DNA of 49,911 nt from a bacterium (GCA_021161645.1 JAGHAC010000046.1:1-49911), one strand, 5' to 3'. Numbered from the stretch's first letter, positions 1 to 40,119 are shown. Made by a program: numbers and translations. Notes: generated from the letters alone by a model not told the origin.

Positions 1-3
1 GAA

Positions 4-768
4 ATGTATAGCTCTTACCATCCCAAGATGAGTCCTAGAAAATATCGCTTCAAATTGAATAATCAGATATTTATTGTTTTTTCTCTATTAGTATTGGGAG
101 TTTTTAGTTTTTATGCTCAAGGAGTTTTTGGAGTAATAGATTCTGGAGGGGGAGGGGGAGGCAATGTATCCCTATTTCTTTATATTGAAAATCCTACAAT
201 TTTTGTTGGTAATAGTGTTGCCGGAACTGCTACTGTAAAAATATATGGAGAGAAAGCTCTTTCTTGTAACACCACCGTGAATTTTGGTGAGAGGTCGGGA
301 GATACTAAAAATATGTTAAGCTTTAATTGTGAATACAATCCGCAAGAAAACGCCGGGTCTAAATTCACAGAATGTTCCCAAACTTTTTCTTATCTTTACA
401 AAGATGAGGGTGAATATAAAATTCATATGAAAACTGATTGTGGCACCACATCATATGAGAGATTCCACACTGTTAAAGTAATCGCTCGTCCGACCACGGG
501 TATCTCTGGCATAGAGTCTCCTATTCAAAGCACCACTATTGAGGAATTACTTGAGCGTATAGGAACAATACTACAAAACATTATTATTGCCTTGGGGATT
601 TTTGTATTAATCATAGCCGGCTATTATTTTATGGCTGCTGGGACTAACCCTCGATATGTTTTAAAGGCAAAAAGAATTATAGTTTGGGTATTTGTAGCGC
701 TAGGTATTGCTATACTCGCAAAAGGAATTATCTTTTTTATTACCCATATGTTTTCTTCATCTTCTTAA
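4..768 (+). CDS. Surface protein: signal-anchor, Cys-containing beta-rich (Ig-like) module, C-terminal VirB2/TrbC-like two-helix pilin hairpin
   Basis: The ORF is open to the left window edge, so the true start may lie outside. It has a hydrophobic N-terminus (IFIVFSLLVLGVFSFYAQG), a G6 linker and a ~120 aa beta-rich region with 4 Cys. It ends in a TM-(AAGTNPRYVLKAKR)-TM hairpin resembling the hairpins of the 7818 and 10096 ORFs. Confidence 0.6.
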   Translation: MYSSYHPKMSPRKYRFKLNNQIFIVFSLLVLGVFSFYAQGVFGVIDSGGGGGGNVSLFLYIENPTIFVGNSVAGTATVKIYGEKALSCNTTVNFGERSGDTKNMLSFNCEYNPQENAGSKFTECSQTFSYLYKDEGEYKIHMKTDCGTTSYERFHTVKVIARPTTGISGIESPIQSTTIEELLERIGTILQNIIIALGIFVLIIAGYYFMAAGTNPRYVLKAKRIIVWVFVALGIAILAKGIIFFITHMFSSSS

Positions 769-771
769 ATT

Positions 772-2982
772 ATGAGAAAAAAAATTACTATTTTCTTATT
801 TCTTGTTCTCACTCTTCTCTTTGCTCCTCATTTAACCCAGGCGGCGTCTGTTTTAGGAATACTCGGAAGCATCTTGGCTATTGTCTTATCACCTGTAATA
901 GCAGTTTTTACTTTAATTACCCGTCTTTTTTTTGTCTGGTCTGCCACTGTTCTAGTTTGGGTAGCGAATCCTTCTTTTATAAAAGTTTCTTTTACGAGAA
1001 ATGAATTTGTTCAGGAAGGATGGACTATTACTAGAGACTTCACTTATATGTTTTTCCTTCTTATCTTGGTCGCAATAGGTTTTGCTACCGCTCTCAGAAT
1101 TAAGGGTTACGAAGTAAGCAAAACCCTTCCTCGCCTGATAGGAGTTGCTCTCCTAATTAATTTTACGCCCGTGATATGCGGCGTAGTCATTGATGCTAGC
1201 AATATTTTTATGAACTTCTTTCTTTCTGCTGGTGGAGCTGGATATTCGGGCATCATAAACACAATAACCGATCTAGCAAAAAACGTAGCCGATGCTCTTT
1301 ATACTTCATCTGCAAGAAATCTCTTAAATGGTCAACTCTTATTTCAAGGATTAGGAATTATTCTTTTTAATATTATGGGAGCGTTCGTGATGATCTTGAT
1401 GGCAGGATTGTTCTTAATAAGATATATGGCTTTGTGGACCTTGGTTATTTTATCTCCCTTGGGTTTTGCTGCTCTTATCTTACCCTCTACCCAAAAATAT
1501 TGGGGAATATGGTGGAAACAATTTCTTAACTGGTGTTTTGTAGGGGTAGGAGCTTCTTTTTTTCTTTACCTTTCTCAAAAAATGGCTGAATTTGTGCATA
1601 GTTACATTGCTGTTCCGCCTACAGAAAGTACTGCTCTGGGATTATTATTGGTTAGATTCTTACCTCTTATATTTTTAGTAATTGGCTTCTTTGCCACTAC
1701 TAACGCCTCTGCTATGGGAGCTAGTCAGACGCTTAATTTTATGAAAAAACAAATAGGGCGGGCTAGAAAAAAAATTATTGAACCTAGAACTAAAGATTTC
1801 CTTCGAGCATATCAGGAAAAAGTGCTGGGTCGCCCAAAAGTAAGACAAGCGATGCAAAAACTTCAAACCCTCCGCCCTCCTCAAAAATTCGGAAAAGCAG
1901 GGAAAGTTCTTGCTCCTGCTACTTGGACAATAAGGAAGCTTTCGCAGGGAACTAGCTATGTTACCGGCACCCCCGAGTCAACCCTTGCATATTTCACACG
2001 AGACAAAAAAGGTCTAGAAAGCTCCTCATATCCCGCCCTTGTAAGCACATTAACTGCCTCAGGTGCAACCGTGCCGCTTTCTAAAAAATTAGCCGCTCTC
2101 TCAATTTTACAAGAACGAGGACAACTTAAAGAGGCAATTAAAAACGGTCTTATTTCTCCAGAGCAAGTATTAAATATTTTATCTGGCATCTACAAACACA
2201 GAGCTCTTTCCAAAAAACATAAAAAAGTAATAGAAGGTCTAGAGCGCTCCCTCTATCTTCAGACAAAGGACCAAAAACAAAGAGATAATATTCTAGCTCG
2301 TATTGTCAGAAACAGGGCAGCAGGTGAGGGTAAAACAGTCGAGGAATGGGAAGCAGAAAATATTAAGGGTAAAGGGTACCGCGATTACGAGCAGATAATT
2401 CTTACCTCTCTTAAAACACCTGAAGACATCGAATCTTTTGCCGGTAAACTAAAGGAAGGAATGGTTGAGAAGTTCTTAGAAAAAGCATCTCCATCCCAAG
2501 TAAGAAAATGGGCAGAAAACTTAGGAAATGAATTTAACAATTTATACAGCAAAATACTTAATGAAAAAGGTGCTGCTTGGCTTGCTGAAATTGATTCCAA
2601 CACTAATAATCCTCGAAACCTTCCTCTGTTAAAATATGCTGTAAGCACTGCAGCTCAGGCATATTTACCTACTCCTCATAAATTCGAAGAAACCGCTGTA
2701 AACTTTGTAGTGAAAAAAGCGCAGGAATATTCTTCTAAGATCCGGGGTGCCGGCAAGAATACTTCTCAGCTGAAAAGTCTTCTAACAAATCTAGAACGAG
2801 AAAAAAATAGCATCTTGTCAAATCCAAAATTAACTGACGAACAAAAAGGCATTTATGAATCATTCTTTGACTCCTATGGAAAGGCTATAAGAGATTTAAT
2901 TCGCAGCCAACAGACAGAAACAGACAGCGGTGGAACAAGATATGGCGATGGTTCTGGTGGCGGTGGTCGATATCCACAATAA
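772..2982 (+). CDS. Polytopic membrane protein, VirB6/TrbL-like, with ~400 aa hydrophilic C-terminal tail
   Basis: 736 aa ORF starting 4 nt after the previous stop. The first ~330 aa contain about 6-7 hydrophobic helices. The rest is charged and helical and ends in GSGGGGRYPQ. The VirB6 call rests on topology and position beside VirB4/VirB3-like genes. Confidence 0.55.
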   Translation: MRKKITIFLFLVLTLLFAPHLTQAASVLGILGSILAIVLSPVIAVFTLITRLFFVWSATVLVWVANPSFIKVSFTRNEFVQEGWTITRDFTYMFFLLILVAIGFATALRIKGYEVSKTLPRLIGVALLINFTPVICGVVIDASNIFMNFFLSAGGAGYSGIINTITDLAKNVADALYTSSARNLLNGQLLFQGLGIILFNIMGAFVMILMAGLFLIRYMALWTLVILSPLGFAALILPSTQKYWGIWWKQFLNWCFVGVGASFFLYLSQKMAEFVHSYIAVPPTESTALGLLLVRFLPLIFLVIGFFATTNASAMGASQTLNFMKKQIGRARKKIIEPRTKDFLRAYQEKVLGRPKVRQAMQKLQTLRPPQKFGKAGKVLAPATWTIRKLSQGTSYVTGTPESTLAYFTRDKKGLESSSYPALVSTLTASGATVPLSKKLAALSILQERGQLKEAIKNGLISPEQVLNILSGIYKHRALSKKHKKVIEGLERSLYLQTKDQKQRDNILARIVRNRAAGEGKTVEEWEAENIKGKGYRDYEQIILTSLKTPEDIESFAGKLKEGMVEKFLEKASPSQVRKWAENLGNEFNNLYSKILNEKGAAWLAEIDSNTNNPRNLPLLKYAVSTAAQAYLPTPHKFEETAVNFVVKKAQEYSSKIRGAGKNTSQLKSLLTNLEREKNSILSNPKLTDEQKGIYESFFDSYGKAIRDLIRSQQTETDSGGTRYGDGSGGGGRYPQ

Positions 2983-3014
2983 AGGGGCTGCTTTAAAGCG
3001 GCCCCTCTTCTTTT
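2983..3014. terminator. Bidirectional intrinsic terminator between convergent genes
   Basis: Hairpin AGGGGCTGC-tttaaa-GCGGCCCCT (one G-U pair) preceded by AAA and followed by CTTCTTTT. It lies exactly between the stop at 2982 (+) and the stop at 3013 (-). Confidence 0.7.
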
Positions 3015-4155
3015 AGCCCTTATTTTGGGAACTTTGAAGTTTTTGGGCGAGATATTTTACCAAAGGAGTGATTATCTCTGTAAGCTGAGAAATGATAGGC
3101 TCCAGGGCCACAACCCATTGCTTTTGCTCTGCTGCCGTACCAAGTTTTTCCAAAATTAACGCCTGATCAAGAGCTTTTCTTTTCCCCATTCCTGCTTCTC
3201 CGAGAATTTCAGCCGATTGGACTACAGGACGAACCCTCATTGTAGCTTCTTCTAGCGCCCTATAGGTTGCTGCTTCTGCTGCTCTGCGAGCAACAAGTGG
3301 TTCTTGACGTGCTTTTTCTATGTTTTCTGGCAATTCTTGGCCTGTAAATTTTGCCGAAACTATTTTTATGCCCATGTCGGCTGCCTGGCTCTGTATCTGT
3401 TCGAGTTCTTTACATATAGTCTCGTGGATTATCGACACCGTCTTGATTCTTTGTTTCTCTAGTTCAAGTTCATCTAATAGGGGTTGGAGTAATGTTGATT
3501 TCGATGCCCCTAGCTCGATTTCTCTTTTCAAGCTTGCAATCCTTTCTTCCAAATTTCTGATTTTTACTTGGTCGATTCCGGGCGATTCTTTGATTCTTTC
3601 AAGTAAATCCCCCAGAATCATTCCACTATCCACAGCTTCTCTTACAGTGAATGTCTGAACAAAGCGCGGCAACAGACTTTCAAACGCATCTCTCACCCAC
3701 TCCCTCCAAAACTTTACATTGTATATTACCCTTTGGGGATTATCCGGATCTATTGTTATGTACACTATAGGGTATCTAGGAATAACTGAACCATCAACCA
3801 GGTCTAACTCATATGTTTGTTCGGTAAATAATTCGATAGGCTGTATTCGTATGTCCACTCTTTCTCTGACTGTATCTACAAAAGGCAACTTAAAATTCCA
3901 ACCTGGGAAAAACACTCTATGGAACTTTCCAAGACGCTCTATTATCCAGCGTTCCGGCTCTTCTACTATCACAATACAAAACAAATATAAGGCGCCTGTT
4001 ATAAGAAAAATTCCGCCAAGAATAGGCGCTATACCAAAATAGATCCCCTGAACCGCGACGAGAATTCCTAAAATCAATAAAGTGATCCTTGCTATCCCCA
4101 GCCAACGCCTCTGTCTTTCGATGCTAGTTAATTGTTTCTCTTCCTTTTCAGCCAT
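3013..4155 (-). CDS. SPFH/band-7 (stomatin/prohibitin-like) membrane protein with coiled-coil C-terminal extension
   Basis: Two N-terminal TM helices are followed by IIERLGKFHRVFFPGWNFKLPFVDTV, typical of an SPFH domain start. I prefer the ATG at 4155 because GGAGGA lies 7 nt upstream. The longest ORF starts at 4170. Confidence 0.8.
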   Translation of the reverse strand: MAEKEEKQLTSIERQRRWLGIARITLLILGILVAVQGIYFGIAPILGGIFLITGALYLFCIVIVEEPERWIIERLGKFHRVFFPGWNFKLPFVDTVRERVDIRIQPIELFTEQTYELDLVDGSVIPRYPIVYITIDPDNPQRVIYNVKFWREWVRDAFESLLPRFVQTFTVREAVDSGMILGDLLERIKESPGIDQVKIRNLEERIASLKREIELGASKSTLLQPLLDELELEKQRIKTVSIIHETICKELEQIQSQAADMGIKIVSAKFTGQELPENIEKARQEPLVARRAAEAATYRALEEATMRVRPVVQSAEILGEAGMGKRKALDQALILEKLGTAAEQKQWVVALEPIISQLTEIITPLVKYLAQKLQSSQNKG

Positions 4156-4251
4156 TTTTATTCCTCCCATTTACTTTTTGAAGGTTCTTCTTACTAATAA
4201 AGTATACCATAATTAAGTCTCTCTTGTCAAACCTTACTTATTGTCTTTGTT

Positions 4252-4281
4252 TTCAAAATTATGATAAAATAATGATATAAT
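4252..4281 (+). promoter_or_regulatory. Candidate extended -10 promoter for the 4302-11691 gene string
   Basis: TGaTATAAT at 4273-4281 with a weak -35 (TTCAAA, 4252-4257), 21 nt upstream of the ATG at 4302 in the divergent intergenic region. Confidence 0.4.
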
Positions 4282-4301
4282 GTAACACATAAACAAATTT
4301 T

Positions 4302-4616
4302 ATGGAGCTATCATCTCAAACATATTGGAAAGCATATCAAAAACTTCCCCCTGTGCTTAAGGAAATGATTTTTTCGCCAGATACAGCAGAGGCCATTTGG
4401 GGTATAGCAAAAATTTGTGAGATAGACCGCACTGCCACCTTGGCGAAAATTATAGGAGATGTGCTCTCTGGCTTCCTTCCTCCCGAAAAATTTAAAGAAG
4501 CTGCTCAAAAGCAATTGGGCCTAGACGAGGAAAAAGCAAAAAAGCTTGAAATATATGTTAACCATTACATTTTTGATTTGGTAAGAGACGAACTTAATCA
4601 ACTATACGCTGAATAA
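4302..4616 (+). CDS. Hypothetical small soluble helical protein (first gene of the T4SS-like string)
   Basis: 104 aa ORF with no TM segment and no motif I recognise. Its stop lies 2 nt before the next start. Confidence 0.6.
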   Translation: MELSSQTYWKAYQKLPPVLKEMIFSPDTAEAIWGIAKICEIDRTATLAKIIGDVLSGFLPPEKFKEAAQKQLGLDEEKAKKLEIYVNHYIFDLVRDELNQLYAE

Positions 4617-4618
4617 AT

Positions 4619-5035
4619 ATGGAGTATCCTCTTCCTCAATTTTTGGAAATCAAACCAAAGGTCGCCGGGCCCCTTACCCTACGCCAATTATTATATTTTG
4701 CCGGCGCCCTAATTTTCCTTTTATATTTCTACTTTACTAAATCCCCGGGGGTTTTTCTTCTGATAGCTATACCTGTTATTGGGGCAACCTTTATTTTGGC
4801 GTTTGTAAAAGTAAAAGGTTATCCCATTCCTACGCTAATCCTCCGAGCTATCGGCTACTCTATCAAAGAAAAAGTTTATGTTTGGAGAAAAATCTCTACG
4901 CCCACGCCAACTCTTCCAAGAATCGGGGTTGGAAAACCAATTAAAAAAGAAACAAACAAGGTAATTCCTAAAATAGGCCCTTCAAAAAGCAAACTAAAGG
5001 AATTATCTAAATTAGTTGAAATTCATCCAAGATAA
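4619..5035 (+). CDS. PrgI/VirB3-like small two-TM membrane protein
   Basis: 138 aa with two adjacent TM helices (LLYFAGALIFLLYFYF, VFLLIAIPVIGATFILAFV). It sits immediately upstream of the VirB4 genes, the usual VirB3/PrgI position. Confidence 0.5.
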   Translation: MEYPLPQFLEIKPKVAGPLTLRQLLYFAGALIFLLYFYFTKSPGVFLLIAIPVIGATFILAFVKVKGYPIPTLILRAIGYSIKEKVYVWRKISTPTPTLPRIGVGKPIKKETNKVIPKIGPSKSKLKELSKLVEIHPR

Positions 5036-5037
5036 AT

Positions 5038-5679
5038 ATGCCTTTTTTTTCTACAGGAAGCGCCCAAGTGCTTCTTCCGATTAAACAAATTCGCGATGGA
5101 ATTATCATAATGCGAGACAATAGTCTGCGGGGAATATTAATGGTTTCTTCCATTAATTTTGAACTTAGGTCTTATGAAGAGCAGGAAGCTATTATCTTTC
5201 AATTTCAAAATTTCTTGAACTCCTTAGATTTTTCCTGTCAAATATTAGTCAATTCTCGCAAAATTAACATTACCGGCTACCTTGACCTTCTCAAAAGAGC
5301 AGAAGAAACACAAACTAATTCTCTTTTGAAGCAACAGATTATTGAATATAGAAAATTTATTGATCAATTAGTCGCGGGTGGTTCAATAATGAATAAAAAT
5401 TTCTATTTAATTATTCCTTTCTTTTTGGGTGAGAAAAAGAAAACCGATATATTTCGCCTCAAAACAATCCCTCGTCTTACCGAAGAACTCTATCAGCAAT
5501 ACAGGAGACATCTTTATCAAAGAATGGAATTTTTGGCCTTAGGATTAAGAAGATGTGCCCTTTGGGCAATGCCTTTGAAAACCGAAGAAATTATAGAACT
5601 TTTGTGGAGTTATTATCATCCCAAAGAAGCACAGGTTGGATATTATCCTGAGATCCCTCCTGAACTAATTATTGGTTAA
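5038..5679 (+). CDS. VirB4-family N-terminal domain encoded as a separate polypeptide
   Basis: 213 aa. The stretch LPIKQIRDGIIIMRDNSLRGILMVSSINFELRSYEEQEAIIFQFQNFLNSLDF has the pattern I associate with the extreme N-terminus of Gram-positive-type VirB4/TrsE/Orf16 ATPases. The TAA stop at 5677-5679 lies 2 nt before the next ATG, which is in a different frame. Confidence 0.6.
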   Translation: MPFFSTGSAQVLLPIKQIRDGIIIMRDNSLRGILMVSSINFELRSYEEQEAIIFQFQNFLNSLDFSCQILVNSRKINITGYLDLLKRAEETQTNSLLKQQIIEYRKFIDQLVAGGSIMNKNFYLIIPFFLGEKKKTDIFRLKTIPRLTEELYQQYRRHLYQRMEFLALGLRRCALWAMPLKTEEIIELLWSYYHPKEAQVGYYPEIPPELIIG

Positions 5680-5681
5680 TT

Positions 5682-7457
5682 ATGTCTTTCTCTTTTCTCA
5701 AAAACATTATTCCCTCCCGTCCTCAACCTCAAGCAATGACTCTGCTGGATTTTATTGCTCCGCCCGCAATAAAGGTAGGCTCAAACTACATTCAAATAGG
5801 CGAAAAACTTGCTCGTTCATATTTCATCTTTTCTTTTCCTCGATATTTAACCACCGGATGGCTTTCTCCGTTAATTAATCTTGATGTCCCTCTTGATATA
5901 TCTATTTTTCTTCATCCAATAGACACGGGTTTAGTTTTAAAAAAACTTAGAAAGAAAGTAACTCAGATTCAGTCGGAAATTATGGAAAAAGAAGAGAAAG
6001 GATTGATTAGAGATCCTGTACTAGAAACGGCTTATAGAGACGCCGAAGTTTTAAGAGATCGCTTACAAACCGCCCAAGAAAGAATGTTTGATGTAGGCAT
6101 TTACATAAATGTTTATGCTGATTCTGAAAAAGAACTGGAGAAGACCGAGGCTACCATCCGAGCTATTCTTGAATCTAAGCTTGTATATATCAAACCCGCC
6201 CTATACCAACAAGAAAAGGGACTAATTTCGTCGTCACCATATGCCTTAGACCAACTGAATGTGCACACACCGATGAATACCAGCCCTCTCTCTACTCTTT
6301 TCCCTTTTGTTTCCTTTGATTTAAGCTCTAATGAGGGAATTTTATATGGCATTAACCAACACAATAACTCATTAATTTTATTTGATAGATTCAGCCTGGA
6401 AAACGCCAATATGGTTGTTTTTGGTAAATCGGGCGGAGGAAAATCATACGCGGTAAAATTAGAGATTTTGAGATATCTTATGCTAGGCGTTGATGTAATT
6501 GTTATTGATCCGGAAAACGAATATAAATTTTTGTGTGATGCAGTTGGTGGAGGTTTTTATAACATTTCTTTAAAATCGCCAAACCACATTAATCCCTTTG
6601 ATTTACCCGAACCTTTAGAAGACGAAACCCCTGAAGAAGTTCTGAGGTCAAATATTATAAACCTTGTAGGGCTTTTAAGGTTAATGCTTGGGGGTTTAAC
6701 GCCCGAAGAAGATTCTATTATAGAGCAAGCAATAACGGAAACCTACGCTGCGAGAGATATAACTGAGAACACTGATCCTAAATTATGGCCTGAACGACTT
6801 CCTCTTCTTTCTGACTTAGAGTCGGTTCTAGAAACGATGGAGGGAGCAGAATCTCTTGTGCAAAGATTAAGAAAGTTTACTAAAGGGGTCTACTCTGGAT
6901 TCTTCAACTACCCTACAAATATAAAAATGGAGAATAATATGGTGGTTTTCGGAATAAAAAACCTTGAACCGGAATTAAGACCGATGGCGATGTATATTAT
7001 TATGCGTTATATATGGAATACTATCAAAGGAGAGTTAAAGAAAAGAATGCTTGTAATTGATGAGGCTTGGTGGCTCATGCAAAACGAAGATAGCGCCTCT
7101 TTTCTGTTTGGAATAGTAAAGCGAGGAAGAAAGTACTGGCTGGGAACTACCACCATCACTCAAGACGTAAATGACTTTATGAAATCAGAATATGGACAGC
7201 CTATTATCTCAAACTCTTCTCTTCAATTATTAATGAAGCAATCTCCGGCAACAATTGCTGTAGTCCAAAAAACTTTTAACCTCACAGATAACGAAAAGGA
7301 TCTGCTTTTAGAGGCTCCTGTAGGAGAGGGAATCTTTTTTGCCGGCGAAAAACATGTTGCTATAAGGGTAGTTTCCTCTTATACAGAACACCAAATTATT
7401 ACTACTTCTCCTGAAGAGCTGGCAAAAATAAAAGAATTAAAAAAGATTAATCAATGA
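5682..7457 (+). CDS. virB4: VirB4-class type IV secretion ATPase (middle domain plus ATPase domain)
   Basis: Walker A VVFGKSGGGKSY, Walker B RMLVIDEAWWLM and TTITQD are present. The N-terminal part (YFIFSFPRYLTTGWLSPLINLDVPLDISIFLHP) is typical of the VirB4/TraE middle region. Confidence 0.85.
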   Translation: MSFSFLKNIIPSRPQPQAMTLLDFIAPPAIKVGSNYIQIGEKLARSYFIFSFPRYLTTGWLSPLINLDVPLDISIFLHPIDTGLVLKKLRKKVTQIQSEIMEKEEKGLIRDPVLETAYRDAEVLRDRLQTAQERMFDVGIYINVYADSEKELEKTEATIRAILESKLVYIKPALYQQEKGLISSSPYALDQLNVHTPMNTSPLSTLFPFVSFDLSSNEGILYGINQHNNSLILFDRFSLENANMVVFGKSGGGKSYAVKLEILRYLMLGVDVIVIDPENEYKFLCDAVGGGFYNISLKSPNHINPFDLPEPLEDETPEEVLRSNIINLVGLLRLMLGGLTPEEDSIIEQAITETYAARDITENTDPKLWPERLPLLSDLESVLETMEGAESLVQRLRKFTKGVYSGFFNYPTNIKMENNMVVFGIKNLEPELRPMAMYIIMRYIWNTIKGELKKRMLVIDEAWWLMQNEDSASFLFGIVKRGRKYWLGTTTITQDVNDFMKSEYGQPIISNSSLQLLMKQSPATIAVVQKTFNLTDNEKDLLLEAPVGEGIFFAGEKHVAIRVVSSYTEHQIITTSPEELAKIKELKKINQ

Positions 7458-7855
7458 TCCCAGAACCGGAAACGCTTTTAGATTTTCTGGTTGCTATAAT
7501 TTTAGACGCTATAGGAGCGCTCTGTCTTATCATTGATTTAACTGGGCTGGGCACAGTTTTTGGCGAAGCGCTTTCGTTTGTCCCCGATATTATTGGCTTT
7601 TTTTATTTTGGGACAGAGCTACTCTTTAAGACTGTTTTGTCAAACACAATGAGTGATATCTCTTCTGTTCCTACCACTGTCTTAGAAGGAATATCTAACA
7701 AAAACACATCCAGGAAGATTGTTAAGACAACTTTAAAAAGAGTAGCTTCTAGATTTGCTTTGTTTTCTATCTTAGAATTTATTCCTGTCGTGGGAAGTTA
7801 TTTTTTCTGGACTCATTATGTTATCTCAAAATCCAAAATGGATCTTAATTCTTAA
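7454..7855 (+). CDS. Small multi-TM membrane protein, unknown function
   Basis: 133 aa with an ATGA overlap onto the VirB4 stop. It has hydrophobic helices at both ends. Confidence 0.55.
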   Translation: MIPEPETLLDFLVAIILDAIGALCLIIDLTGLGTVFGEALSFVPDIIGFFYFGTELLFKTVLSNTMSDISSVPTTVLEGISNKNTSRKIVKTTLKRVASRFALFSILEFIPVVGSYFFWTHYVISKSKMDLNS

Positions 7856-10094
7856 CTGCTTGATGGCAATGACTTTGTGCCTAATTGCTGACTCTTTAGT
7901 TTGGGCTACGGATTTAGAGGTAAAATATCCTCGAATTCCCGGAATTACTCCGCCAGAAAGTGTTCAAGTCCCTCTTTCTTTTTACTTAAATTATATTTTT
8001 GAACTCGCTGTTGGCCTTGCAGGTTTTTTGGTATTTTTTCTTCTTATTAGGGCGGGAACTATATATGTTTTTAATTCTTATAACCCTGGCAAAGTAAAAG
8101 AGGCAAAAGAAATTCTTACCTTTGCTTTTGTAGGTTTTGGTATTATCCTTTCTTCTTATCTAATTTTGGCATTAATCAATCCTCAATTAGTTAAATTTCA
8201 TCTCCCCTCTCTAACACCTGCAAAACTAGAACCTATAGAAGAAATTGGCGAAATTCAGGCTCCCTCAATTCCTTTAACCGAAATTCCTGTGGGGACTTTA
8301 ATTACCTCAGAGACCGGGGTTTCTTCTTTTATTTTAACTCCTGGAACAGATCCCCCTTATAATCACCCAAATTATGATAAATATTTTCCTGGAGTAGTAA
8401 AATATCCAACAGATTATCAGGGGGCAATAAATGGAAGAAGGGTTAAAAGAATACATGAAGTTACCCAACACAGCGTACCTATGTCTGGCATAATGGTATT
8501 TCTGGTAGAAAAACTAAAAGGGCTTACTGATAAGTGTGTATGTAGAAATTGTGAATGTATTGCTAAGCAAAGCTGCCGGGCCGGAGAGTGCCAATTAGGT
8601 ATATGTACCTCAGAAACAAGAGCGAGAATAACTTGTGCTCAACTTCAGATTGTTTTCTTTACAGGCGCATATACTGCTTGGCTGGACGGCAACAATATTT
8701 TAGAAAGATATGTAAAAGCCAACCAGGGGCTATTAGTTAAAATCGAGAACTGCGACCCCGAGGGTACAGCAAAAATAATGCAAGCGATAAAGAAAGCAAT
8801 CGAAATTGAAAATAAAGGAACATGGACTCCTAAAACCGACCCGCCAGAGAGAGACGTCCAGCAAAACATCTGGCACCTAGAGAAAATTATTGAGTATTTA
8901 AATAGCGTGAAACTTACCTTAACGCCTGAGATTCCCGGTAACCCCTGCTCCTATGTTTATAGCAACGCTCAAGTTGGAGGAGAAATAGCAAAAGATGTTG
9001 TGCCTATGATCGAAGAAGTCAATGTTATAGAAGACCCTGCTACATTTTACTGTTCTCTCTCTCCATTAAAAATTTTGAGTGATTTGGAATTGCTCCAAAT
9101 TCTCTCTCAAGAATTGGGAAGTTCTGAAGCCCCAAGTACCTGTGACGATATAGTAGAAATCCCTGTAGGAAAAGCGATAGACGAAGCTCTAAAACTTGCC
9201 AATGATATGTTGAGAGAATTAAAAAATATTTGGAAGCAAGGACACCAACAAATTGAATGGGCTTTACAAATGAATGATATTGCTGATAAAATAAAAACAG
9301 AGAACAACTGTTCTGTTTATTGCATTCATAAAGTAAGATGCCTCTTCACTAACCCTGAAACTCACCGTTGTGAGGTCTGTGAGTGTACATGTAAAGAATC
9401 ACCTACCCTTACAGTGCTTCGTCAAAAACTTCAAGATCTCTTAGAGGCCATTAAACAAGCTCATGATAGCATTTTTATGTCTTTTAAAAGAATCAATTCT
9501 AAAGACCCTCTTACAGGACAACGTGTGCCTATTGGTATAGATCGCTGCTGCGTAAAACCATTAGGAGATTGCTTTTTGGAAAACGAGTTCGAAAAGCGGG
9601 ATTACACTCTTAAAGAAAAGCTTCTCGAAGTTCAAAAGCTGCTTGACCGCGCTCGATTATTTAGTACATACGAATTACTGCTTAAACAGCTTGCTAATCT
9701 TAAATCATCGGGTCGCCTATCCGGTCCAGAATATGCTAGATTACCAGACCCAATTAAAGAGTTTAATAAAGTTTTAAGTGCAGAATATGCGAAATACAGA
9801 TATGACCTTACAAACTGTGATGTTCTAACCAAACAGCACATTGAATCAGAAGAAACGGTAGGCCAACTTAATATTTTAGAGAGTTGTTATGTGGCAAAAA
9901 CCATTTATCATTTAAATCCTGAATATTGTCGCTCCAACCCACCTTATAATTGTGATTATTTCAATCCTATTTCCCCTCCAAAACTGAGACAAGGGTTGCT
10001 CTGCTATTGTAACCAACCCCCGGATTTTTCTGAAATTGCTTCTGATTTTTTCTGCTGTGTAAGCGCATCTCATATGTTACAAAAAGAGCGGTAA
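7818..10094 (+). CDS. Giant pilin-fusion: signal peptide, VirB2/TrbC-like two-helix hairpin, ~620 aa cysteine-rich ectodomain
   Basis: Signal peptide ...LIADSLVWA, then LEVKYPRIPG, then helix1 (YLNYIFELAVGLAGFLVFFLLI), loop NSYNPGKVKEAKE and helix2 ending LINPQL. About 30 Cys follow in CxC/CxxC clusters (CVCRNCECIAKQSC, CEVCECTC, DRCCV, FFCCV). An alternative start at 7863 is possible. Confidence 0.7.
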   Translation: MLSQNPKWILILNCLMAMTLCLIADSLVWATDLEVKYPRIPGITPPESVQVPLSFYLNYIFELAVGLAGFLVFFLLIRAGTIYVFNSYNPGKVKEAKEILTFAFVGFGIILSSYLILALINPQLVKFHLPSLTPAKLEPIEEIGEIQAPSIPLTEIPVGTLITSETGVSSFILTPGTDPPYNHPNYDKYFPGVVKYPTDYQGAINGRRVKRIHEVTQHSVPMSGIMVFLVEKLKGLTDKCVCRNCECIAKQSCRAGECQLGICTSETRARITCAQLQIVFFTGAYTAWLDGNNILERYVKANQGLLVKIENCDPEGTAKIMQAIKKAIEIENKGTWTPKTDPPERDVQQNIWHLEKIIEYLNSVKLTLTPEIPGNPCSYVYSNAQVGGEIAKDVVPMIEEVNVIEDPATFYCSLSPLKILSDLELLQILSQELGSSEAPSTCDDIVEIPVGKAIDEALKLANDMLRELKNIWKQGHQQIEWALQMNDIADKIKTENNCSVYCIHKVRCLFTNPETHRCEVCECTCKESPTLTVLRQKLQDLLEAIKQAHDSIFMSFKRINSKDPLTGQRVPIGIDRCCVKPLGDCFLENEFEKRDYTLKEKLLEVQKLLDRARLFSTYELLLKQLANLKSSGRLSGPEYARLPDPIKEFNKVLSAEYAKYRYDLTNCDVLTKQHIESEETVGQLNILESCYVAKTIYHLNPEYCRSNPPYNCDYFNPISPPKLRQGLLCYCNQPPDFSEIASDFFCCVSASHMLQKER

Positions 10095-10095
10095 T

Positions 10096-11691
10096 ATGAA
10101 AAAAAGATTAATATTCTATTATTCTCTAACAGTTGTATTGACTATCATTGCAAGTACCACCTTAGTGAGGGCTGATTCTGGTTTAGAATTAGAAGTAAAA
10201 TACCCGAACCTGTCTCAAACAATATCTCCGCCCCAATCAGCCAAGGGGTACCTTGTTGATTATATTAAATATATTTTTGAAGTGGCAATTTTCCTCTCCG
10301 GAATCGTGGCTTTTGTGGCTTTTCTCAGGGGAGGGTTTTCCTATCTTACTTCAACAGGCAATCCCTCTAAAATGCAAGATGCTAGAGACCAAATTCTTGC
10401 CGGTTTTCTTGGTTTAATTATTATCTTAGGTTCTTTTATCCTTTTGAATACCATCAACCCGCAATTAACGGAAATTAAACCTCCTGGAATTACTGGAGTA
10501 GGCCGAGGCATTATAGTCTATTCCGACGAAAACTGTGGAGATGGCGCTAATGCCCTTCCCGGTGTTCTAAAACCTTTACCTGAGGGAGTTATTTACGAAA
10601 GAGTAGAGTGGACCAAGGCTCTCTCTTCCACATCAAGAGCCCAGAACGGAACAAGAAAAGGAATGGCTATCAGATCTTTATATTCCTTCAATAGCGGAGA
10701 AGAATTAGTTCGTATAGAATTTTATCAAAACAAAGAGTGCCAAGGTCAGCCAATATCTGTTTTTACCCCCCCGAATGCAGACAAATGTTATAGCGGGACT
10801 GATATAGCCGACCAAGGGAAAATAGAGGATGTCCAATGTATTAAACTCATATGGCATATTCCCGGCGTCTGGCTTTTTACTGAAGAAGACGGAAATCCTG
10901 AATCGCCTACAGGTCCTTTTACAATAATACAAATGGATGCTCCCTCGCTACCGGAGAAGGTAGCTGGCAAAGTAAAATCTATCGCTTTAGTTGATGATGA
11001 ATTAAAACATCAAAAATATGGGGTTGTTCTCCATGAAAAATCTGGGCCTAGATACAAGGTTAAAGGTTGGGCACATCCTTATTTTCCTAAACCACAACTC
11101 TCGACAACCCGTTATAAAACAACAAACAAAAATGCTCATTCTGCCACAGTGTTTATTGTAGATGAAAACACTCCTTCTAAATGGGTGAGGCTTTGCGAGC
11201 ACGACGATTGCCAGCCGGCATCAGTTAATGAAGGAGGAGAGGTTGTTTCTAAGCCGGCTGAGAGATATTATATGTGGCCGGGGGAAAACAGACCTCCTGT
11301 CGGTGGCAACACTACACCATTAAAAGAGATTGAAAAAGTACCTCCTGAATATGCCAGAGGGGCTCTTCTCCACGAAGACGCTGATGAGTGGTGGAAGGGA
11401 GGAGATAAAGTAGCTATTTGTGAAAGTGTAAGTGGTATTAATTGGATCGGCAGAATTACCCAGTTGACAGGTAAATGTTATCGAGGAGTCTCCGCCATCG
11501 AACTCGAAGAGGGAAGTAGTTATATCTTAATCCTTTGGGCTACAGGGAAAACAAAACCACAATGGGTGGAAGGTGCGCGAGGAAATGCTCCGGCTCTTAT
11601 TATAGACAAAACCACTCGAAAACTGATTGACTTCGGATTTAATGAACAGTTGGGCATGTTTTTGGTTATAAAGGTTAAATCTTCTTTTTAA
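10096..11691 (+). CDS. Pilin-fusion paralog: signal peptide, VirB2/TrbC-like hairpin, ~400 aa ectodomain with 8 Cys
   Basis: Signal peptide ...STTLVRA, then LELEVKYPNLS, YIKYIFEVAIFLSGIVAFVAFL, loop STGNPSKMQDARD, and helix2 ending TINPQL. The N-terminal ~130 aa are clearly paralogous to the 7818 ORF. Confidence 0.7.
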   Translation: MKKRLIFYYSLTVVLTIIASTTLVRADSGLELEVKYPNLSQTISPPQSAKGYLVDYIKYIFEVAIFLSGIVAFVAFLRGGFSYLTSTGNPSKMQDARDQILAGFLGLIIILGSFILLNTINPQLTEIKPPGITGVGRGIIVYSDENCGDGANALPGVLKPLPEGVIYERVEWTKALSSTSRAQNGTRKGMAIRSLYSFNSGEELVRIEFYQNKECQGQPISVFTPPNADKCYSGTDIADQGKIEDVQCIKLIWHIPGVWLFTEEDGNPESPTGPFTIIQMDAPSLPEKVAGKVKSIALVDDELKHQKYGVVLHEKSGPRYKVKGWAHPYFPKPQLSTTRYKTTNKNAHSATVFIVDENTPSKWVRLCEHDDCQPASVNEGGEVVSKPAERYYMWPGENRPPVGGNTTPLKEIEKVPPEYARGALLHEDADEWWKGGDKVAICESVSGINWIGRITQLTGKCYRGVSAIELEEGSSYILILWATGKTKPQWVEGARGNAPALIIDKTTRKLIDFGFNEQLGMFLVIKVKSSF

Positions 11692-11692
11692 C

Positions 11693-12163
11693 CTAGATCT
11701 TTTTGGGTTTTATTATTACTCTTCTTTCTGGTTCTTCCCCTACGCTTTCTGTGGCAACATCATTTCTTTTAGCTAATTCTAAATGAATGATTCTTCTTTG
11801 ATAAGCTGGCATTGGTTCCAGCTCTTTCTTTTTTTTGGAAAGAGTCACTTCGTCAGCCACAGAATTTGCTATCTCTCGAAGATAAGTATACTTCTTTTCT
11901 TTATATTCGTTAATGTCTAGATCAACAAAAAAATCTCCTTGGTTTTTCTTTTTAAGAATCTTTGAAAGAAGTTTTTGAATTGTATTAAGAACTATTCCAC
12001 CCTGCCCAATTAAAATCTTAGGTTCTTCCACTTGAATTCTGATGTGTAAAACCCCTTCTTCTAAAAAAACCTCTACTTTCTGAAGATCAAAACCCATTTT
12101 CTCAAAAAACTGACAAACAAGAGATTTTGTATTTTTAAAATTGACAGCGTCCTCCATATTCAA
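11693..12163 (-). CDS. jag: Jag/SpoIIIJ-associated KH + R3H RNA-binding protein
   Basis: KH GxxG motif (ILIGQGGIVLNTIQ) and R3H motif (YQRRIIHLEL). It sits downstream of yidC, as is typical. Confidence 0.85.
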   Translation of the reverse strand: MNMEDAVNFKNTKSLVCQFFEKMGFDLQKVEVFLEEGVLHIRIQVEEPKILIGQGGIVLNTIQKLLSKILKKKNQGDFFVDLDINEYKEKKYTYLREIANSVADEVTLSKKKKELEPMPAYQRRIIHLELAKRNDVATESVGEEPERRVIIKPKKI

Positions 12164-12858
12164 TTTTTAATTCTTCTTTTAACAATTTCTTGTTGAAGAA
12201 TAGCAAATAATCCACTTACAAGCAAGTAAAGAGCGACGGCTGAAGGTACTTTTAGGAGAACTATCACAATAAAAGCCGACAAAAAATAATTCATCATTAA
12301 CTGCTGATGTTTTTGCTGCTTATCTTTTGAAGACGATCTTACACTCATCCATTTTGTCTGAAGATACTGAGAAACGCCCACAAGTACTGCCAATAAAATT
12401 GACGGTTTAGCTAAATCTATGTTTAAAAAGATGGTATTTATTGTCTCTGGCTTGTGAACAAAACTGTAAAGATAAGTAAAATTTTCTGGGTTCAAGCCTC
12501 TCAAAAACAATCTATAAAGAGCGATAAGCACCGGAAATTGAATAAGAAGCAGCCAAAATCCTGAAAAGGGGTTAAACTTTTCTTTTTTATAAATCTCCAT
12601 CAGAGCTTTTGCCTGTTTTTCTCTATCGTACTTATGCTTCTCTTGGATTTCCTTAATTTTAGGTTGAATTTTTTGAAGGGCTATCTGCGATTTAATCACC
12701 TTTTCTTGAAAAGGATACAAAGCAGCTCTAATAAGTAGGGTTAAAATAATTATTGCCAAACCAAAACTATGACCAGGCAAATAAGTAGTTAAAAGAATTA
12801 AAAGATTAAAAAGCGGCTGGTAGAAGATTATATAAAAAATTTTTACAATACTATTCAT
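12160..12858 (-). CDS. yidC: YidC/Oxa1-family membrane protein insertase (short form)
   Basis: 232 aa polytopic protein in the conserved rnpA-yidC-jag order, with a 4 nt overlap to jag and an 8 nt overlap with rnpA. Confidence 0.85.
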   Translation of the reverse strand: MNSIVKIFYIIFYQPLFNLLILLTTYLPGHSFGLAIIILTLLIRAALYPFQEKVIKSQIALQKIQPKIKEIQEKHKYDREKQAKALMEIYKKEKFNPFSGFWLLLIQFPVLIALYRLFLRGLNPENFTYLYSFVHKPETINTIFLNIDLAKPSILLAVLVGVSQYLQTKWMSVRSSSKDKQQKHQQLMMNYFLSAFIVIVLLKVPSAVALYLLVSGLFAILQQEIVKRRIKN

Positions 12859-13201
12859 TTTGTTTGATAATTCCTGCTTTTTGAAAGATTGTTAGTATAA
12901 TTTCCTGTAGTTCCCAAAAATCATACTTTTCTGCTCCGGGTAAAGCGATTACCACAACATCATAACCCTGCTTAATGTGTAGCAGAATACTTCTTATCGC
13001 TTCTCTCAATTTCCTTTTTAATCTGTTTCTTGTCACTGCTCTGTTTGAAACTTTTCTAGAAACCACAAACCCAAATCGCAAACCAGAATCTTCTTTTTCA
13101 AGAATCTTAATAAAAATTTCTTTTTCTCTATATCCTTTTCCTTGACGAAAAACTAAGTTGAAATCCTTTTGTTTTTTGAGTCGGTTTTTGAAAGGTAACA
13201 T
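12851..13201 (-). CDS. rnpA: Ribonuclease P protein component
   Basis: 116 aa basic protein with KKQKDFNLVFRQGK near the N-terminus. It starts 1 nt after the rpmH stop. Confidence 0.85.
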   Translation of the reverse strand: MLPFKNRLKKQKDFNLVFRQGKGYREKEIFIKILEKEDSGLRFGFVVSRKVSNRAVTRNRLKRKLREAIRSILLHIKQGYDVVVIALPGAEKYDFWELQEIILTIFQKAGIIKQNE

Positions 13202-13336
13202 TTAAGGAATAAGTTTTTTTCTGCCCTTTTTCCGCCTTCTCTTTAACACTCTCTTGCCTCCTTTAGTTTTTGTTCTTTTTAGAAACCCATGTGTTTTCTT
13301 TTTCTTTCTTTTTTTACCTTTGTTTGTAATGCTCAT
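13202..13336 (-). CDS. rpmH: 50S ribosomal protein L34 (below the ORF-track length cutoff)
   Basis: Manual translation of the minus strand gives MSITNKGKKRKKKKTHGFLKRTKTKGGKRVLKRRRKKGRKKLIP*. This contains the L34 core THGF..R.KTKGG..VL.RRR.KGRK.L. Confidence 0.9.
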   Translation of the reverse strand: MSITNKGKKRKKKKTHGFLKRTKTKGGKRVLKRRRKKGRKKLIP

Positions 13337-13524: not shown

Positions 13525-14871
13525 ATGACAAAAGAAGAGCTCTGGCAATCTGTTCTTGCCCAAATCCAACTCAATGTTTCTCCAGCAAATTTTGCTACCT
13601 GGTTTAAAAATACAAAAATTGTAGGAGTAAACGGAAGCTCTGTAATTATAGGCACCCCAAATGCCTTTTCCAGAGAGTGGCTTGAAAAAAAATATGGCAA
13701 AACCATATTAAAAATTTTAAGAAACCTAGATACCCAAATTAAAAAAATAGAGTTCCAGGTAATTTCTCATAAGCCCCTTAAAAACTTTGCTCAAAAATCT
13801 GTAGAATATCCTGACCAACTTAAATTTGAAGAATTTTATTTAGACAAAAAAACTAACCTTAATCCAAAATATACTTTTGAGAACTTTGTTGTAGGTCCGT
13901 TTAACGAACTTCCTCACGCTGCTGCTTGGGCTGTAAGCGAAAATCCGGGATCTGTATATAATCCTCTTTTTATTTACGGAGGCGTAGGACTAGGAAAAAC
14001 TCATCTTATTCAAGCGCTTGGTAACAAAGTATTAGAAAACTTCCCAAACAAAAAAGTACGCTATGTATCTTCTGAAAGATTTACTTCCGAGATTATTAAC
14101 TCTATCAAAAATCAAACAATAGACCGCTTCAAAAGATCCTATCATCAAATCGATCTTTTAATCATAGACGACATTCAATTTCTCTCAGGCAAAGAAAAAA
14201 CCCAAGAAGAATTCTTTCATATTTTTAATTCACTCTATGAGGCGAATAAACAGATTATTCTCTCTTCTGATCGTCCACCAAAGGCAATTTCCGCTCTAGA
14301 AGAAAGATTAAGATCAAGATTTGAGGGAGGAATGATTGCAGATATCAGCATTCCGGATTTTGAGTCGCGAGTCGCTATTTTGAAACAAAAAATGCAGGAA
14401 AAAAACATCTTTTTTGACGACCAAATCTTAGAATATATTGCCGAGAATATCCAAAGCAATATAAGAGAACTTGAGGGAGCGCTTAACAGACTCATTATTT
14501 ATCAAAAAATCAATAACCAAACCGTAGATCTGGAAACTGCTAAAAAGTTGCTTAAAAGAATCATAAAACCTCAAGCTAAAAGGGTGAGCTTTCAAAAAGT
14601 AATAGATATTGTAGCTGAATTTTACAACCTCAAATCCAAAGATCTCTTTCAGAAAACAAGAAAACAAGAAATTGTAAGACCAAGACAAATAGCAATGTAT
14701 TTATTAAGAGAAGAAGTTAAACTCGCCTTTCCAACTATTGGGAAAAAGTTTGGAGGAAAAGACCATACCACTGCCATCTACGCCTACGAAAAAATCGCTA
14801 AAGAAATTGAAGAGAATGAAAGTTTCTCAGAGGAAATAAACATCATCAAAGAAAGAATTTATACCTTATAA
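13525..14871 (+). CDS. dnaA: Chromosomal replication initiator DnaA
   Basis: Walker A GGVGLGKTHL, Walker B LLIIDDIQFL, and the C-terminal DNA-binding signature RPRQIAMYLLRE...GGKDHTTAIYAYEKI. Confidence 0.95.
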   Translation: MTKEELWQSVLAQIQLNVSPANFATWFKNTKIVGVNGSSVIIGTPNAFSREWLEKKYGKTILKILRNLDTQIKKIEFQVISHKPLKNFAQKSVEYPDQLKFEEFYLDKKTNLNPKYTFENFVVGPFNELPHAAAWAVSENPGSVYNPLFIYGGVGLGKTHLIQALGNKVLENFPNKKVRYVSSERFTSEIINSIKNQTIDRFKRSYHQIDLLIIDDIQFLSGKEKTQEEFFHIFNSLYEANKQIILSSDRPPKAISALEERLRSRFEGGMIADISIPDFESRVAILKQKMQEKNIFFDDQILEYIAENIQSNIRELEGALNRLIIYQKINNQTVDLETAKKLLKRIIKPQAKRVSFQKVIDIVAEFYNLKSKDLFQKTRKQEIVRPRQIAMYLLREEVKLAFPTIGKKFGGKDHTTAIYAYEKIAKEIEENESFSEEINIIKERIYTL

Positions 14872-15101: not shown

Positions 15102-16235
15102 ATGGCTATAGAAGTTTTGCGAGAAAATTTAAAAAAAGGTCTTCAGATTGTAGAAAGAATCACAGGAAAAAATTTAGTTCTTCCAATTTTAAACAATGTT
15201 TATTTAAAAACAGAAAAAAATTCGTTAAGGCTTGCGACTACGGATTTAGAAACAGCAATCTATCATTGGATATTAGCAAAGACGGATAAAGAGCAAGAAA
15301 TTACAGTGCCTGTAAAATTATTTTCGAATCTTTTATCTTTTTTGTCAGATCAAAAAATCAATCTAGAAATAAAAGATAAAATTTTAATATTAAGCGGAGA
15401 AAACTATAAAACAGAAATAAAAGGATTAGATCCAAAAGATTTTCCTATTATTCCTAAAATTGAAAAGAATGAGTGGATCGAGATTGATCCTTTATCGTTT
15501 ACAACAAGTATTTCTCAGGTAATTGATTTTTGTAGCACAACTCAAGTGAGGCCAGAACTTACTGGTGTTTATTTTTTCTTTTCGGAAAAAAATGTAAAGA
15601 TTGTTGCCACAGATAGTTTTAGGTTGGCGGAGAAAACCCTTAATTATCAAACTTCTCAAGGAAATCTTAAAGAAGAGAAGGCTTTTATTCTTCCAAGAAG
15701 TGCTGCTAGGGAAATTACAGGAATTTTCAATGAATCGGGGCAAAAAATTAAGATATTTTTTACTTCCAATCAGGTTTTGGTAGAGAATTATTTCTTTGAA
15801 TCAGAAACGCCACAGACCCAATTAATTTCGAGGTTAATAGAAGGAGAGTTTCCTAATTATCAAGATATAATTCCCAAGGAGTCGAAGACAGAAATTTTAG
15901 CAGATAAGTCTCAATTTTTGAATTATCTAAAGGCGGCAAGCATTTTTGCTGGAAGGGGTAATGAAGTAAATTTGAAGGTTGATGCTAAAGATAAGAGAAT
16001 AGAGATTTTAACCGAGAATACGGATGTGGGTTCTACTCAATTTACTCTTCCGGCAAAGATTAATGGAGAAAAAACGAAGATATGCTTCAATTACAAGTTT
16101 TTACTTGAAGGAATTTCTAAAATTAAAGGAGATGAAATATATATAGGATTAAACGGTGAAGATGGTCCGGGGCTCATTAAATCACAAGAAGATTCTAGTT
16201 TTCTCTATATCCTAATGCCGATTAAACCTACATAA
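15102..16235 (+). CDS. dnaN: DNA polymerase III beta sliding clamp
   Basis: 377 aa directly after dnaA. The N-terminal pattern (L..GL..V.RI....LVLPILNNVYL) and the length fit DnaN. Confidence 0.9.
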   Translation: MAIEVLRENLKKGLQIVERITGKNLVLPILNNVYLKTEKNSLRLATTDLETAIYHWILAKTDKEQEITVPVKLFSNLLSFLSDQKINLEIKDKILILSGENYKTEIKGLDPKDFPIIPKIEKNEWIEIDPLSFTTSISQVIDFCSTTQVRPELTGVYFFFSEKNVKIVATDSFRLAEKTLNYQTSQGNLKEEKAFILPRSAAREITGIFNESGQKIKIFFTSNQVLVENYFFESETPQTQLISRLIEGEFPNYQDIIPKESKTEILADKSQFLNYLKAASIFAGRGNEVNLKVDAKDKRIEILTENTDVGSTQFTLPAKINGEKTKICFNYKFLLEGISKIKGDEIYIGLNGEDGPGLIKSQEDSSFLYILMPIKPT

Positions 16236-22971: not shown

Positions 22972-22976
22972 AGAAT

Positions 22977-24059: not shown

Positions 24060-24112
24060 AATCTTTTTCAATTTAATTCCAAAGATTCCAAAAGTCAATT
24101 TTGTGAGATTTA

Positions 24113-26317: not shown

Positions 26318-26325
26318 TCTTTAAT

Positions 26326-26931: not shown

Positions 26932-26936
26932 AAAAT

Positions 26937-34619: not shown

Positions 34620-34621
34620 TT

Positions 34622-37757: not shown

Positions 37758-37761
37758 TTCT

Positions 37762-39135: not shown

Positions 39136-39155
39136 GCATAAATTTTTAAAAGTAT

Positions 39156-40118: not shown

Positions 40119-40119
40119 A

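Follow-up and report, generated by a model that had tools for sequence, protein, structure and literature searches.

A probable Patescibacteria-clade type IV secretion locus without a relaxase beside the replication-origin genes of a Paceibacteria genome

Background

What kind of machine is encoded by a set of type IV secretion genes that lacks a relaxase and stands directly against the replication-origin genes of a chromosome? The question is raised by the left end (positions 1 to 11691) of contig JAGHAC010000046.1 (GCA_021161645.1; locus tags J7K92_02050, J7K92_02085 and J7K92_02090), obtained from NCBI and belonging to an ultrasmall metagenome-assembled genome (MAG) of the Patescibacteria (Paceibacteria). 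The entire contig of 49,911 bp was analysed and is called the window below. An earlier note on this DNA had proposed a minimal, chromosomally fixed and probably non-conjugative machine resembling a type IV secretion system (T4SS). Components, synteny in related genomes and the absence of mobility genes support that proposal. We consider it quite probable that the best overall explanation is a member of the Patescibacteria-clade T4SS engaged in non-conjugative exchange between an epibiont and its host.

The earlier note had also taken the locus for a poorly described system. This view is out of date, as both the system and its site near dnaA have been described (PMC10633639, PMC12102498, PMC12857230). 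According to Wang et al. 2023 Cell (PMC10633639), Southlakia epibionticum depends for its epibiotic growth on the gene cluster SEML1_0006-0019, which contains pilin genes but no coupling protein or relaxase. A second study, a survey of 3,035 genomes, found a monophyletic clade of Patescibacteria VirB4 proteins nested in the MPF_FATA type (Quinonero-Coronel et al. 2025 Microb Genom, PMC12102498). According to the same survey, TrsD is the most abundant component associated with VirB4, next to PrgI/VirB3, VirB6 and pilins of the families PF18895 and PF04956, often in arrays; relaxases occur in only 103 of the 3,035 genomes; and in the Paceibacteria and the Microgenomatia the T4SS lies near dnaA, dnaN, rnpA, rpmH and ksgA. 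Few machines besides the Patescibacteria T4SS are known to be indispensable for epibiotic life in this very large bacterial radiation, most of which is uncultured. Its role has been termed completely unknown in reviews (PMC11665869); a review of T4SS from 2025 (PMC12857230) and a perspective from 2024 (PMC11665869) both treat the function as unknown and hypothesise that it delivers effectors or takes up molecules of the host. Tubular structures, perhaps T4SS pili, have been reported at a parasite-host interface (bioRxiv 10.64898/2026.06.21.733656).

Because the system, the absence of a relaxase and the proximity to the origin have all been published, the window opens no new question; it adds a clean example from the Paceibacteria. 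It does sharpen the parts list for this group, with a motor made by two genes (TrsD and VirB4), two conserved, unnamed accessory genes, and pilin modules that carry large ectodomains diverging at a rapid pace.

Results and discussion

The VirB3-TrsD-VirB4 core

Domain scans with Pfam and NCBIfam were run on nearly all open reading frames (ORFs) of at least 150 aa in the window, including every such ORF inside the locus. For the genome comparison, 185,579 species genomes were scanned with the VirB4 protein, which yielded 259 relatives. The best 80 of these (66-92% identity), all MAGs of Patescibacteria / Paceibacterota / Nealsonbacteria, were used for locus comparison; their affiliation is consistent with a place of this VirB4 in the Patescibacteria clade. 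The presence of genes was counted with tblastn over these 80 related loci, and families built with iterated hidden Markov models (HMMs) were counted over 81 sources.

The 591-aa protein encoded at 5682-7457 on the plus strand is a VirB4 ATPase of the MPF_FATA/CD1110 type. It reaches 383.7 bits with the NCBIfam model conju_CD1110 (cut-off 325), also matches the Pfam TraG P-loop (E 3.4e-28) and AAA_10 domains, and has intact Walker A (GKSGGGKS) and Walker B (LVIDEAW) motifs in its translation. The match extends only over model positions 184-733 of 752, and therefore the N-terminal domain is missing. The preceding gene (5038-5679, plus strand) supplies it in the form of a 213-aa TrsD-like protein, a homologue of the N-terminal part of full-length VirB4. 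This protein matches the N-terminal ~120-150 positions of four NCBIfam VirB4 models (e.g. positions 104-233 of VirB4_plasma, E 1.9e-8, and 9-121 of CD1110) as well as the TrsD model NF041427 (E 1.5e-5), and in a profile comparison with hhalign its family aligned with pGO1 TrsD (E 5e-4 over 167 columns).

The earlier note had described 5038-7457 as one gene for a VirB4-class ATPase. The ATPase is indeed there, but the stretch holds two genes: the 213-aa ORF is closed by a TAA at 5677-5679, and the 591-aa ORF starts at 5682 in another frame. A single VirB4 gene that has been split or pseudogenised was considered and rejected, since the two genes are separate in every one of the 77 relatives that carry both. 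Among the relatives 77 TrsD-like ORFs (median 212 aa) and 81 VirB4 ORFs were collected, none of them fused. The TrsD-like gene is present in 78 of the 80 related loci, its frame relative to virB4 varies (30/29/19), and the gaps range from 5 to 257 nt. The literature likewise contradicts a split gene, as it treats TrsD as a normal component.

Upstream of the TrsD-like gene lies the gene for a 138-aa PrgI/VirB3-like protein with two transmembrane (TM) segments (4619-5035, plus strand). The earlier assignment of this protein is supported by a Pfam match above the cut-off (PF12666, E 1.4e-8, 35.6 bits against 27), and PrgI was found in 73 of the 80 related loci.

Two conserved ORFs that the earlier description did not include flank this core. 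The 104-aa soluble protein orf104 (4302-4616, plus strand) is conserved directly upstream of prgI; its family occupies the same position in 65 of the 81 sources, and in 45 of the 80 loci by tblastn. An alignment shows that the orf104 protein of the window is devoid of the C-terminal D.YRE.IE tail that is conserved in its relatives. The 133-aa membrane protein orf133, with two to three TM segments (7454-7855, plus strand), is conserved directly downstream of virB4, where its family was found in 47 of the 81 sources. Neither protein has a match in Pfam or NCBIfam. The families of orf104, orf133 and PrgI gave no hits in hhalign comparisons with 18 single reference proteins from pGO1, pCF10 and R388; this outcome is uninformative, as such single-sequence templates are insensitive and PrgI, the positive control, failed too.

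The VirB6/TrbL-like protein

The gene at 772-2982 (plus strand) encodes an extended, polytopic VirB6/TrbL-like membrane protein of 736 aa, with a TM core (aa ~1-320) followed by a hydrophilic tail of ~400 aa. The assignment, already made in the earlier note, is borne out through homologues and through the comparison with TrwI of R388. Its homologues (E down to 1e-104) are annotated with PF19590 or PF04610, and the TrbL family PF04610 is matched individually by 10 of the 30 aligned members of the family. The family profile aligned with R388 TrwI/VirB6 over 62 columns (hhalign probability 89.5%, E 1.9e-6) and weakly with PrgH of pCF10 (E 0.041), and a search against PDB sequences returned noise only. 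Of these comparisons the one with R388 TrwI alone was usable. VirB6 is the weakest of the component assignments.

Pilin modules fused to large ectodomains

The earlier note had listed three proteins with a VirB2-like two-helix hairpin. All three are supported by the Pfam T4SS pilin family PF18895 (cut-off 26.6 bits), one above the cut-off and two just below it. The first gene of the locus (4-768, plus strand) encodes a 254-aa pilin-like protein that scores 33 bits with PF18895 (E 6.3e-8) and also matches TrbC/VirB2 PF04956 (E 8.8e-4) and the NCBIfam Mbov_0395 pilin-like model (E 1e-4). It is built of an N-terminal signal/TM segment, a run of glycines, an ectodomain of ~130 aa and a C-terminal VirB2-like hairpin (aa 176-243), with TM segments at 183-214 and 218-251. 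An iterative HMM seeded with this protein converged on all the pilin-module ORFs of the relatives.

The other two genes follow orf133. The first of them (7818-10094, plus strand) encodes a giant pilin-module protein of 758 aa, which scores 23.3 bits with PF18895 at its N-terminus. A signal peptide is followed by a VirB2-like hairpin (aa ~53-120) and then by a Cys-rich, mostly helical ectodomain of ~630 aa; the protein contains 32 cysteines. Most of its full-length homologues carry PF18895, and some have been named 'pilin' by NCBI. A confident AlphaFold2 (AF2) model based on 35 homologues (predicted local distance difference test, pLDDT, 78.9; predicted template modelling score, pTM, 0.73) displays a signal helix and helices at 53-85 and 90-120; a Foldseek search of the PDB with this model gave no match better than E 0.4 (best E 0.43). 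When 1.84 billion representatives were searched exhaustively with HMMER, the ectodomain family turned up in 33 clusters only. In those near-full-length hits (~740-1060 aa) in which the match extends as far as the N-terminal end of the ectodomain, the latter begins at about residue 130-150 of the hit, behind a pilin module.

The second gene (10096-11691, plus strand) encodes a pilin-module protein of 531 aa, with 20.5 bits for PF18895 at the N-terminus. The N-terminal ~125 aa of the 531- and 758-aa proteins are paralogous (37% identity, BLASTP E 5e-22 over aa 9-133), whereas the 531-aa protein has its own, beta-rich ectodomain of ~400 aa that is unlike that of its paralogue. Its homologues mostly carry PF18895 and again include proteins that NCBI names 'pilin'. 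The AF2 model of this protein is poor (pLDDT 59.8), and a fold search with that model found no match.

Pilin-module ORFs in the related loci number 131, from 65 sources. They measure 95-1477 aa (median 483 aa), and in 121 of them the module is N-terminal. The giant pilin-module fusions of 531 and 758 aa with their lineage-restricted ectodomains are the less-described feature of this locus. By inference, it is plausible that the fused ectodomains are unrecognised host-contact modules, and they are obvious candidates for determinants of host specificity.

Gene order and transcription units

ORF calling and translation recovered the ORFs listed in the earlier note, except for 5038-7457 as a single ORF. 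The tight coupling of the genes that had been noted is real: the gaps between successive genes measure 3, 2, 2, 2 and 1 nt, and the overlaps 4 nt (7454/7457) and 38 nt (7818/7855). Contrary to the earlier claim, however, the genes do not all run in one direction. A minus-strand gene at 3013-4170, encoding a 385-aa SPFH/Band-7 (HflK/C-like) membrane protein (Pfam Band_7, E 3.2e-16), splits the locus. Because this gene is bounded by a hairpin and by a divergent promoter-like region, the locus falls into two transcription units or more (4-2982 and 4302-11691). The GC-rich hairpin (2983-3006, 10-bp stem) stands between the convergent stops of the VirB6-like and SPFH genes and is probably a bidirectional terminator that closes the first operon. 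The 131 nt that separate the SPFH gene from orf104 contain putative promoter sites for both directions at 4201-4281, identified on the basis of consensus matches only; one of these matches is TTCAAA-18-TATAAT at 4252-4281 (plus strand), 21 nt ahead of the start codon of the second operon.

The SPFH gene itself was considered as a part of the T4SS and rejected: at the same position it occurs in only 7 of the 80 related loci (tblastn), and it is probably not a component.

Synteny and inheritance

The last T4SS gene ends with a TAA at 11689-11691, and a single nucleotide separates it from the convergent jag stop (11693-11695), as the earlier note had it. Comparison with the relatives shows that the site is conserved: convergent jag-yidC-rnpA|dnaA-dnaN genes are found downstream of virB4 in 57 of the 80 loci. 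Among these 57, jag abuts virB4 directly in 23, and a stretch of 3.7-9.6 kb with pilin-module genes lies in between in the other 34. On the opposite side, relatives whose contigs extend further to the left have ksgA and genes for a LysM-M23 peptidase, a sigma-70 factor and DksA upstream of the pilin-VirB6 pair.

The earlier finding that mobility genes are absent holds for the whole window. Scanned over nearly all ORFs of at least 150 aa in its 49.9 kb, Pfam and NCBIfam identify no type IV coupling protein (T4CP), relaxase, VirB8-11 protein or integrase. Position 1 is the contig end, 3 nt before the first pilin gene, and the left limit of the locus is an assembly boundary and not a biological one; the left side was checked in two relatives (L004 and L008), which have no mobility genes there. 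Flanking att-like repeats were not found either: the window contains only short AT-rich chance repeats, its own left flank lying beyond the contig end. In the same two relatives the genes for a LysM-Peptidase_M23 protein and ksgA are found just upstream of the first pilin gene (1115-3459 in L004, 2182-4166 in L008), the peptidase one to two genes upstream. This LysM-M23 peptidase could be the missing VirB1-like cell-wall hydrolase, with its place in the present genome beyond the end of the contig.

Across the same genomes the median identity is 69% for VirB4 and 56% for TrsD, compared with 62% for DnaA, 47% for YidC and 44% for DnaN, which puts VirB4 and TrsD on a par with these proteins or above them. 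The identity of VirB4 co-varies with that of DnaA (rho 0.47, p 0.001), and the correlation between DnaA and YidC is about equally good. For the surface parts the identity is no higher than 26-33%. Because VirB4 is more conserved than DnaA and tracks it, and because the surface parts are divergent, these values point to a vertically inherited core machine, under strong purifying selection, with a fast-evolving exterior.

Comparison with known systems

The nearest counterpart is the T4SS of the Patescibacteria clade itself. The locus belongs to the same phylum and shares the MPF_FATA-type VirB4, the separate TrsD, PrgI/VirB3, VirB6 and tandem PF18895 genes, as well as the lack of a relaxase or T4CP at the locus and the chromosomal site near dnaA/dnaN/rnpA/rpmH that is typical of the Paceibacteria. 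It differs in its pilins. The published VirB2 homologues are small and come in arrays of 2-11, whereas the window and its close relatives have fusions to ectodomains of 400-630 aa. Moreover, the window adds the orf104 and orf133 families on either side of the VirB3-TrsD-VirB4 core and has no VirB1- or VirB8-like gene. Essentiality has been established for a member of the Saccharimonadia only.

The conjugative T4SS of the Firmicutes of the pGO1/pSK41/pIP501 type (MPF_FATA with TrsD) likewise have a separate TrsD gene and a TrbL/VirB6-family protein. The order trsB-trsC-trsD-trsE-trsF of pGO1 is mirrored by orf104-VirB3-TrsD-VirB4-membrane protein, which fits the proposed ancestry from conjugation systems of monoderms. 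Unlike the locus described here, pGO1 is plasmid-borne and comes with a relaxase, the T4CP TrsK, the VirB1-like CHAP hydrolase TrsG, the VirB8-like TrsH, a topoisomerase and a single-stranded DNA-binding protein, none of which is encoded in the window. The Prg/Pcf system of the Enterococcus plasmid pCF10 shares the PrgI-family VirB3 and the CD1110-family VirB4 (PrgJ). PrgJ, however, is a single protein of 796 aa without a separate TrsD, adhesion is brought about by the LPXTG protein PrgB and not by pilin modules, and PrgH is related to the VirB6 family of the window only at the weak level given above. Finally, the extended-VirB6 proteins of the Rickettsiales and of MPF_FA systems also combine a polytopic TrbL/VirB6 core with a large hydrophilic C-terminal domain (PMC12857230), but the tail of the window protein has no detectable sequence relationship to theirs.

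Function and alternative explanations

That the locus is a member of the MPF_FATA-derived Patescibacteria-clade T4SS is, in our view, very probable. Its predicted proteins make up the cytoplasmic-membrane translocon of a monoderm T4SS together with pilin modules, and genes for DNA processing are absent. In the mechanism that we propose, VirB4 and TrsD, docked on VirB3 and VirB6, would energise the extraction of pilin modules from the membrane, and from these modules a short filament or conduit would be built on the cell surface. The 531- and 758-aa proteins might be incorporated by means of their hairpins, or might stay anchored in the membrane, and their fast-evolving ectodomains would contact the host cell. 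Such a machine would move macromolecules between epibiont and host, by export of effectors or import of host material, and not by conjugative transfer of DNA. For a non-conjugative contact or conduit role as such we see a slightly better than even chance.

Several other explanations deserve attention. A decayed or truncated integrative and conjugative element (ICE) of the Gram-positive MPF_FATA type, which has lost its relaxase, T4CP and integrase or carries them past the left end of the contig, might be suspected: the best VirB4 match is to the CD1110 family (CTn2 of C. difficile), the order of TrsD, VirB3 and VirB4 resembles that of pGO1, the locus starts at the contig end with its own left flank unseen, and the GC content of the first 11.7 kb (0.36-0.41) lies slightly above that of the origin block (0.30-0.35). 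This is nevertheless very improbable. The relatives that extend to the left have ksgA, LysM-M23, sigma-70 and DksA genes directly upstream and no mobility genes, the site beside jag...dnaA is kept in the 57 of 80 genomes, whose DnaA proteins are 57-96% identical, and the conservation of VirB4 beyond DnaA, the lack of flanking repeats and the rarity of relaxases in the survey (PMC12102498) point the same way. On the grounds of synteny, upstream context of relatives, absent mobility genes and absent repeats, the conjugative element is largely refuted and was rejected. The missing relaxase and T4CP would also fit a dedicated importer like ComB of H. pylori or the archaeal Ced system, which would bring in host DNA, RNA or nucleotides for an organism unable to make nucleotides. 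Uptake has been proposed as a candidate role (PMC11665869, PMC12857230), a 2026 preprint on a parasite of the Minisyncoccota describes feeding on host RNA together with possible T4SS pili, and VirB4 weakly matches the NCBIfam models of the DNA-import ATPases CedB (E 9e-15) and CedD (E 4e-4). The latter matches are far under the cut-off, however, and reflect the shared P-loop. ComB-type systems moreover have homologues of VirB7-10, while VirB8, VirB9 and VirB10 have no matches in the window, and in S. epibionticum a comEC deletion is viable although the T4SS is essential, so that uptake would need another route (PMC12857230). As an explanation in its own right the importer seems unlikely to us; as a sub-hypothesis of the exchange role, import is somewhat favoured.

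A further alternative concerns the pilin-module proteins, which may be membrane-anchored adhesins that share a two-helix anchor, with a T4SS core that is filament-free as in Gram-positive conjugation. The lengths observed in the relatives, at the median and even more so at the maximum, are far above that of any structurally characterised VirB2, two of the three hits in the window remain under the gathering score of PF18895, and in the 23 relatives mentioned above nothing of this kind separates virB4 from jag. On the other hand, the module is homologous from the small (95 aa) to the giant members, the genes show translational coupling to virB4 and orf133, and S. epibionticum cannot do without its small pilin arrays (PMC10633639). 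We regard the adhesins as possible but doubtful. An equally tentative idea, which goes beyond the individual proteins, is that the T4SS 'pilins' of this lineage are mostly giant surface proteins, rather than small structural subunits, anchored by a VirB2 hairpin and provided with lineage-restricted, fast-evolving ectodomains; the T4SS might then be a dedicated machine that displays or inserts modules for host recognition, or a pilus into which adhesin subunits are built. If true, this would be a mode described for no T4SS, and one that is missing from the surveys in print, whose searches took VirB2 to be a small protein.

Some observations weigh against non-conjugative exchange by a Patescibacteria-clade T4SS, the explanation that we prefer. 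The VirB6-like protein itself has no match in Pfam or NCBIfam, and with the same databases neither a VirB1-like hydrolase nor a VirB8-like protein was found in the window. The sub-threshold scores of two of the three pilin-module proteins belong here as well, as does the lack of a signal in hhalign comparisons of the pilin-module profile with TrwL of R388 and PrgF of pCF10, both insensitive single-sequence templates. The entry of proteins of 531-758 aa into a VirB2-type filament is hypothetical. The domain scans covered 49.9 kb, and a T4CP or relaxase could be encoded elsewhere in the genome; indeed, VirD4 homologues are located far from virB4 in most Patescibacteria (PMC12102498). Lastly, the demonstrated function is confined to the member of the Saccharimonadia and does not extend to the MAG of the window.

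The origin block and the remainder of the contig

The jag-yidC-rnpA-rpmH|dnaA-dnaN block that the earlier note had reported is present beside the locus. On the minus strand it comprises jag/KhpB, with R3H and KH domains (11693-12163), yidC (12160-12858), rnpA (12851-13201) and rpmH (13202-13336), and on the plus strand dnaA (13525-14871) and dnaN (15102-16235). Over the whole window the number of DnaA boxes is not above chance (12 found, 12.2 expected). The rpmH-dnaA gap contains a tandem pair at 13426 and 13437, one box perfect and one with one mismatch; this pair, alone among the boxes of the window, is suggestive. The cumulative GC-skew reaches its minimum at ~22000-24113, about 9 kb to the right of dnaA and not at the rpmH-dnaA gap. 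At the same place the genes switch strand (22977-24098 on the minus strand, 24113 onward on the plus strand), and the 14-nt gap at 24098/24113 is too small for an origin. The main T4SS operon (4302-11691) runs toward dnaA, with no terminator between its end and the jag stop 1 nt away. Should the origin lie at ~13.4 kb, the operon faces the leftward replication fork head-on, and overlap of the convergent transcripts is unavoidable.

The remainder of the contig is taken up by housekeeping and type IV pilus genes. The type IV pilus set (21673-22980 on the minus strand, 32874-35824 and 35836-41214) includes a PilT/PilB-like T2SSE ATPase, a PilB with an MshEN domain, PilC (T2SSF), PilM and surface proteins with Ig-like and CarboxypepD_reg domains. 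Both the type IV pilus and the T4SS are essential in the cultivated Saccharimonadia model. A protein with a lamin-tail domain (LTD) is encoded between yebC and ruvB (19767-20489, minus strand). Histidine kinases with HAMP and PAS domains are encoded at 25634-28520 and 31543-32472, and no response regulator was recognised next to them. The right end of the contig is occupied by an archease gene (49437-49841).

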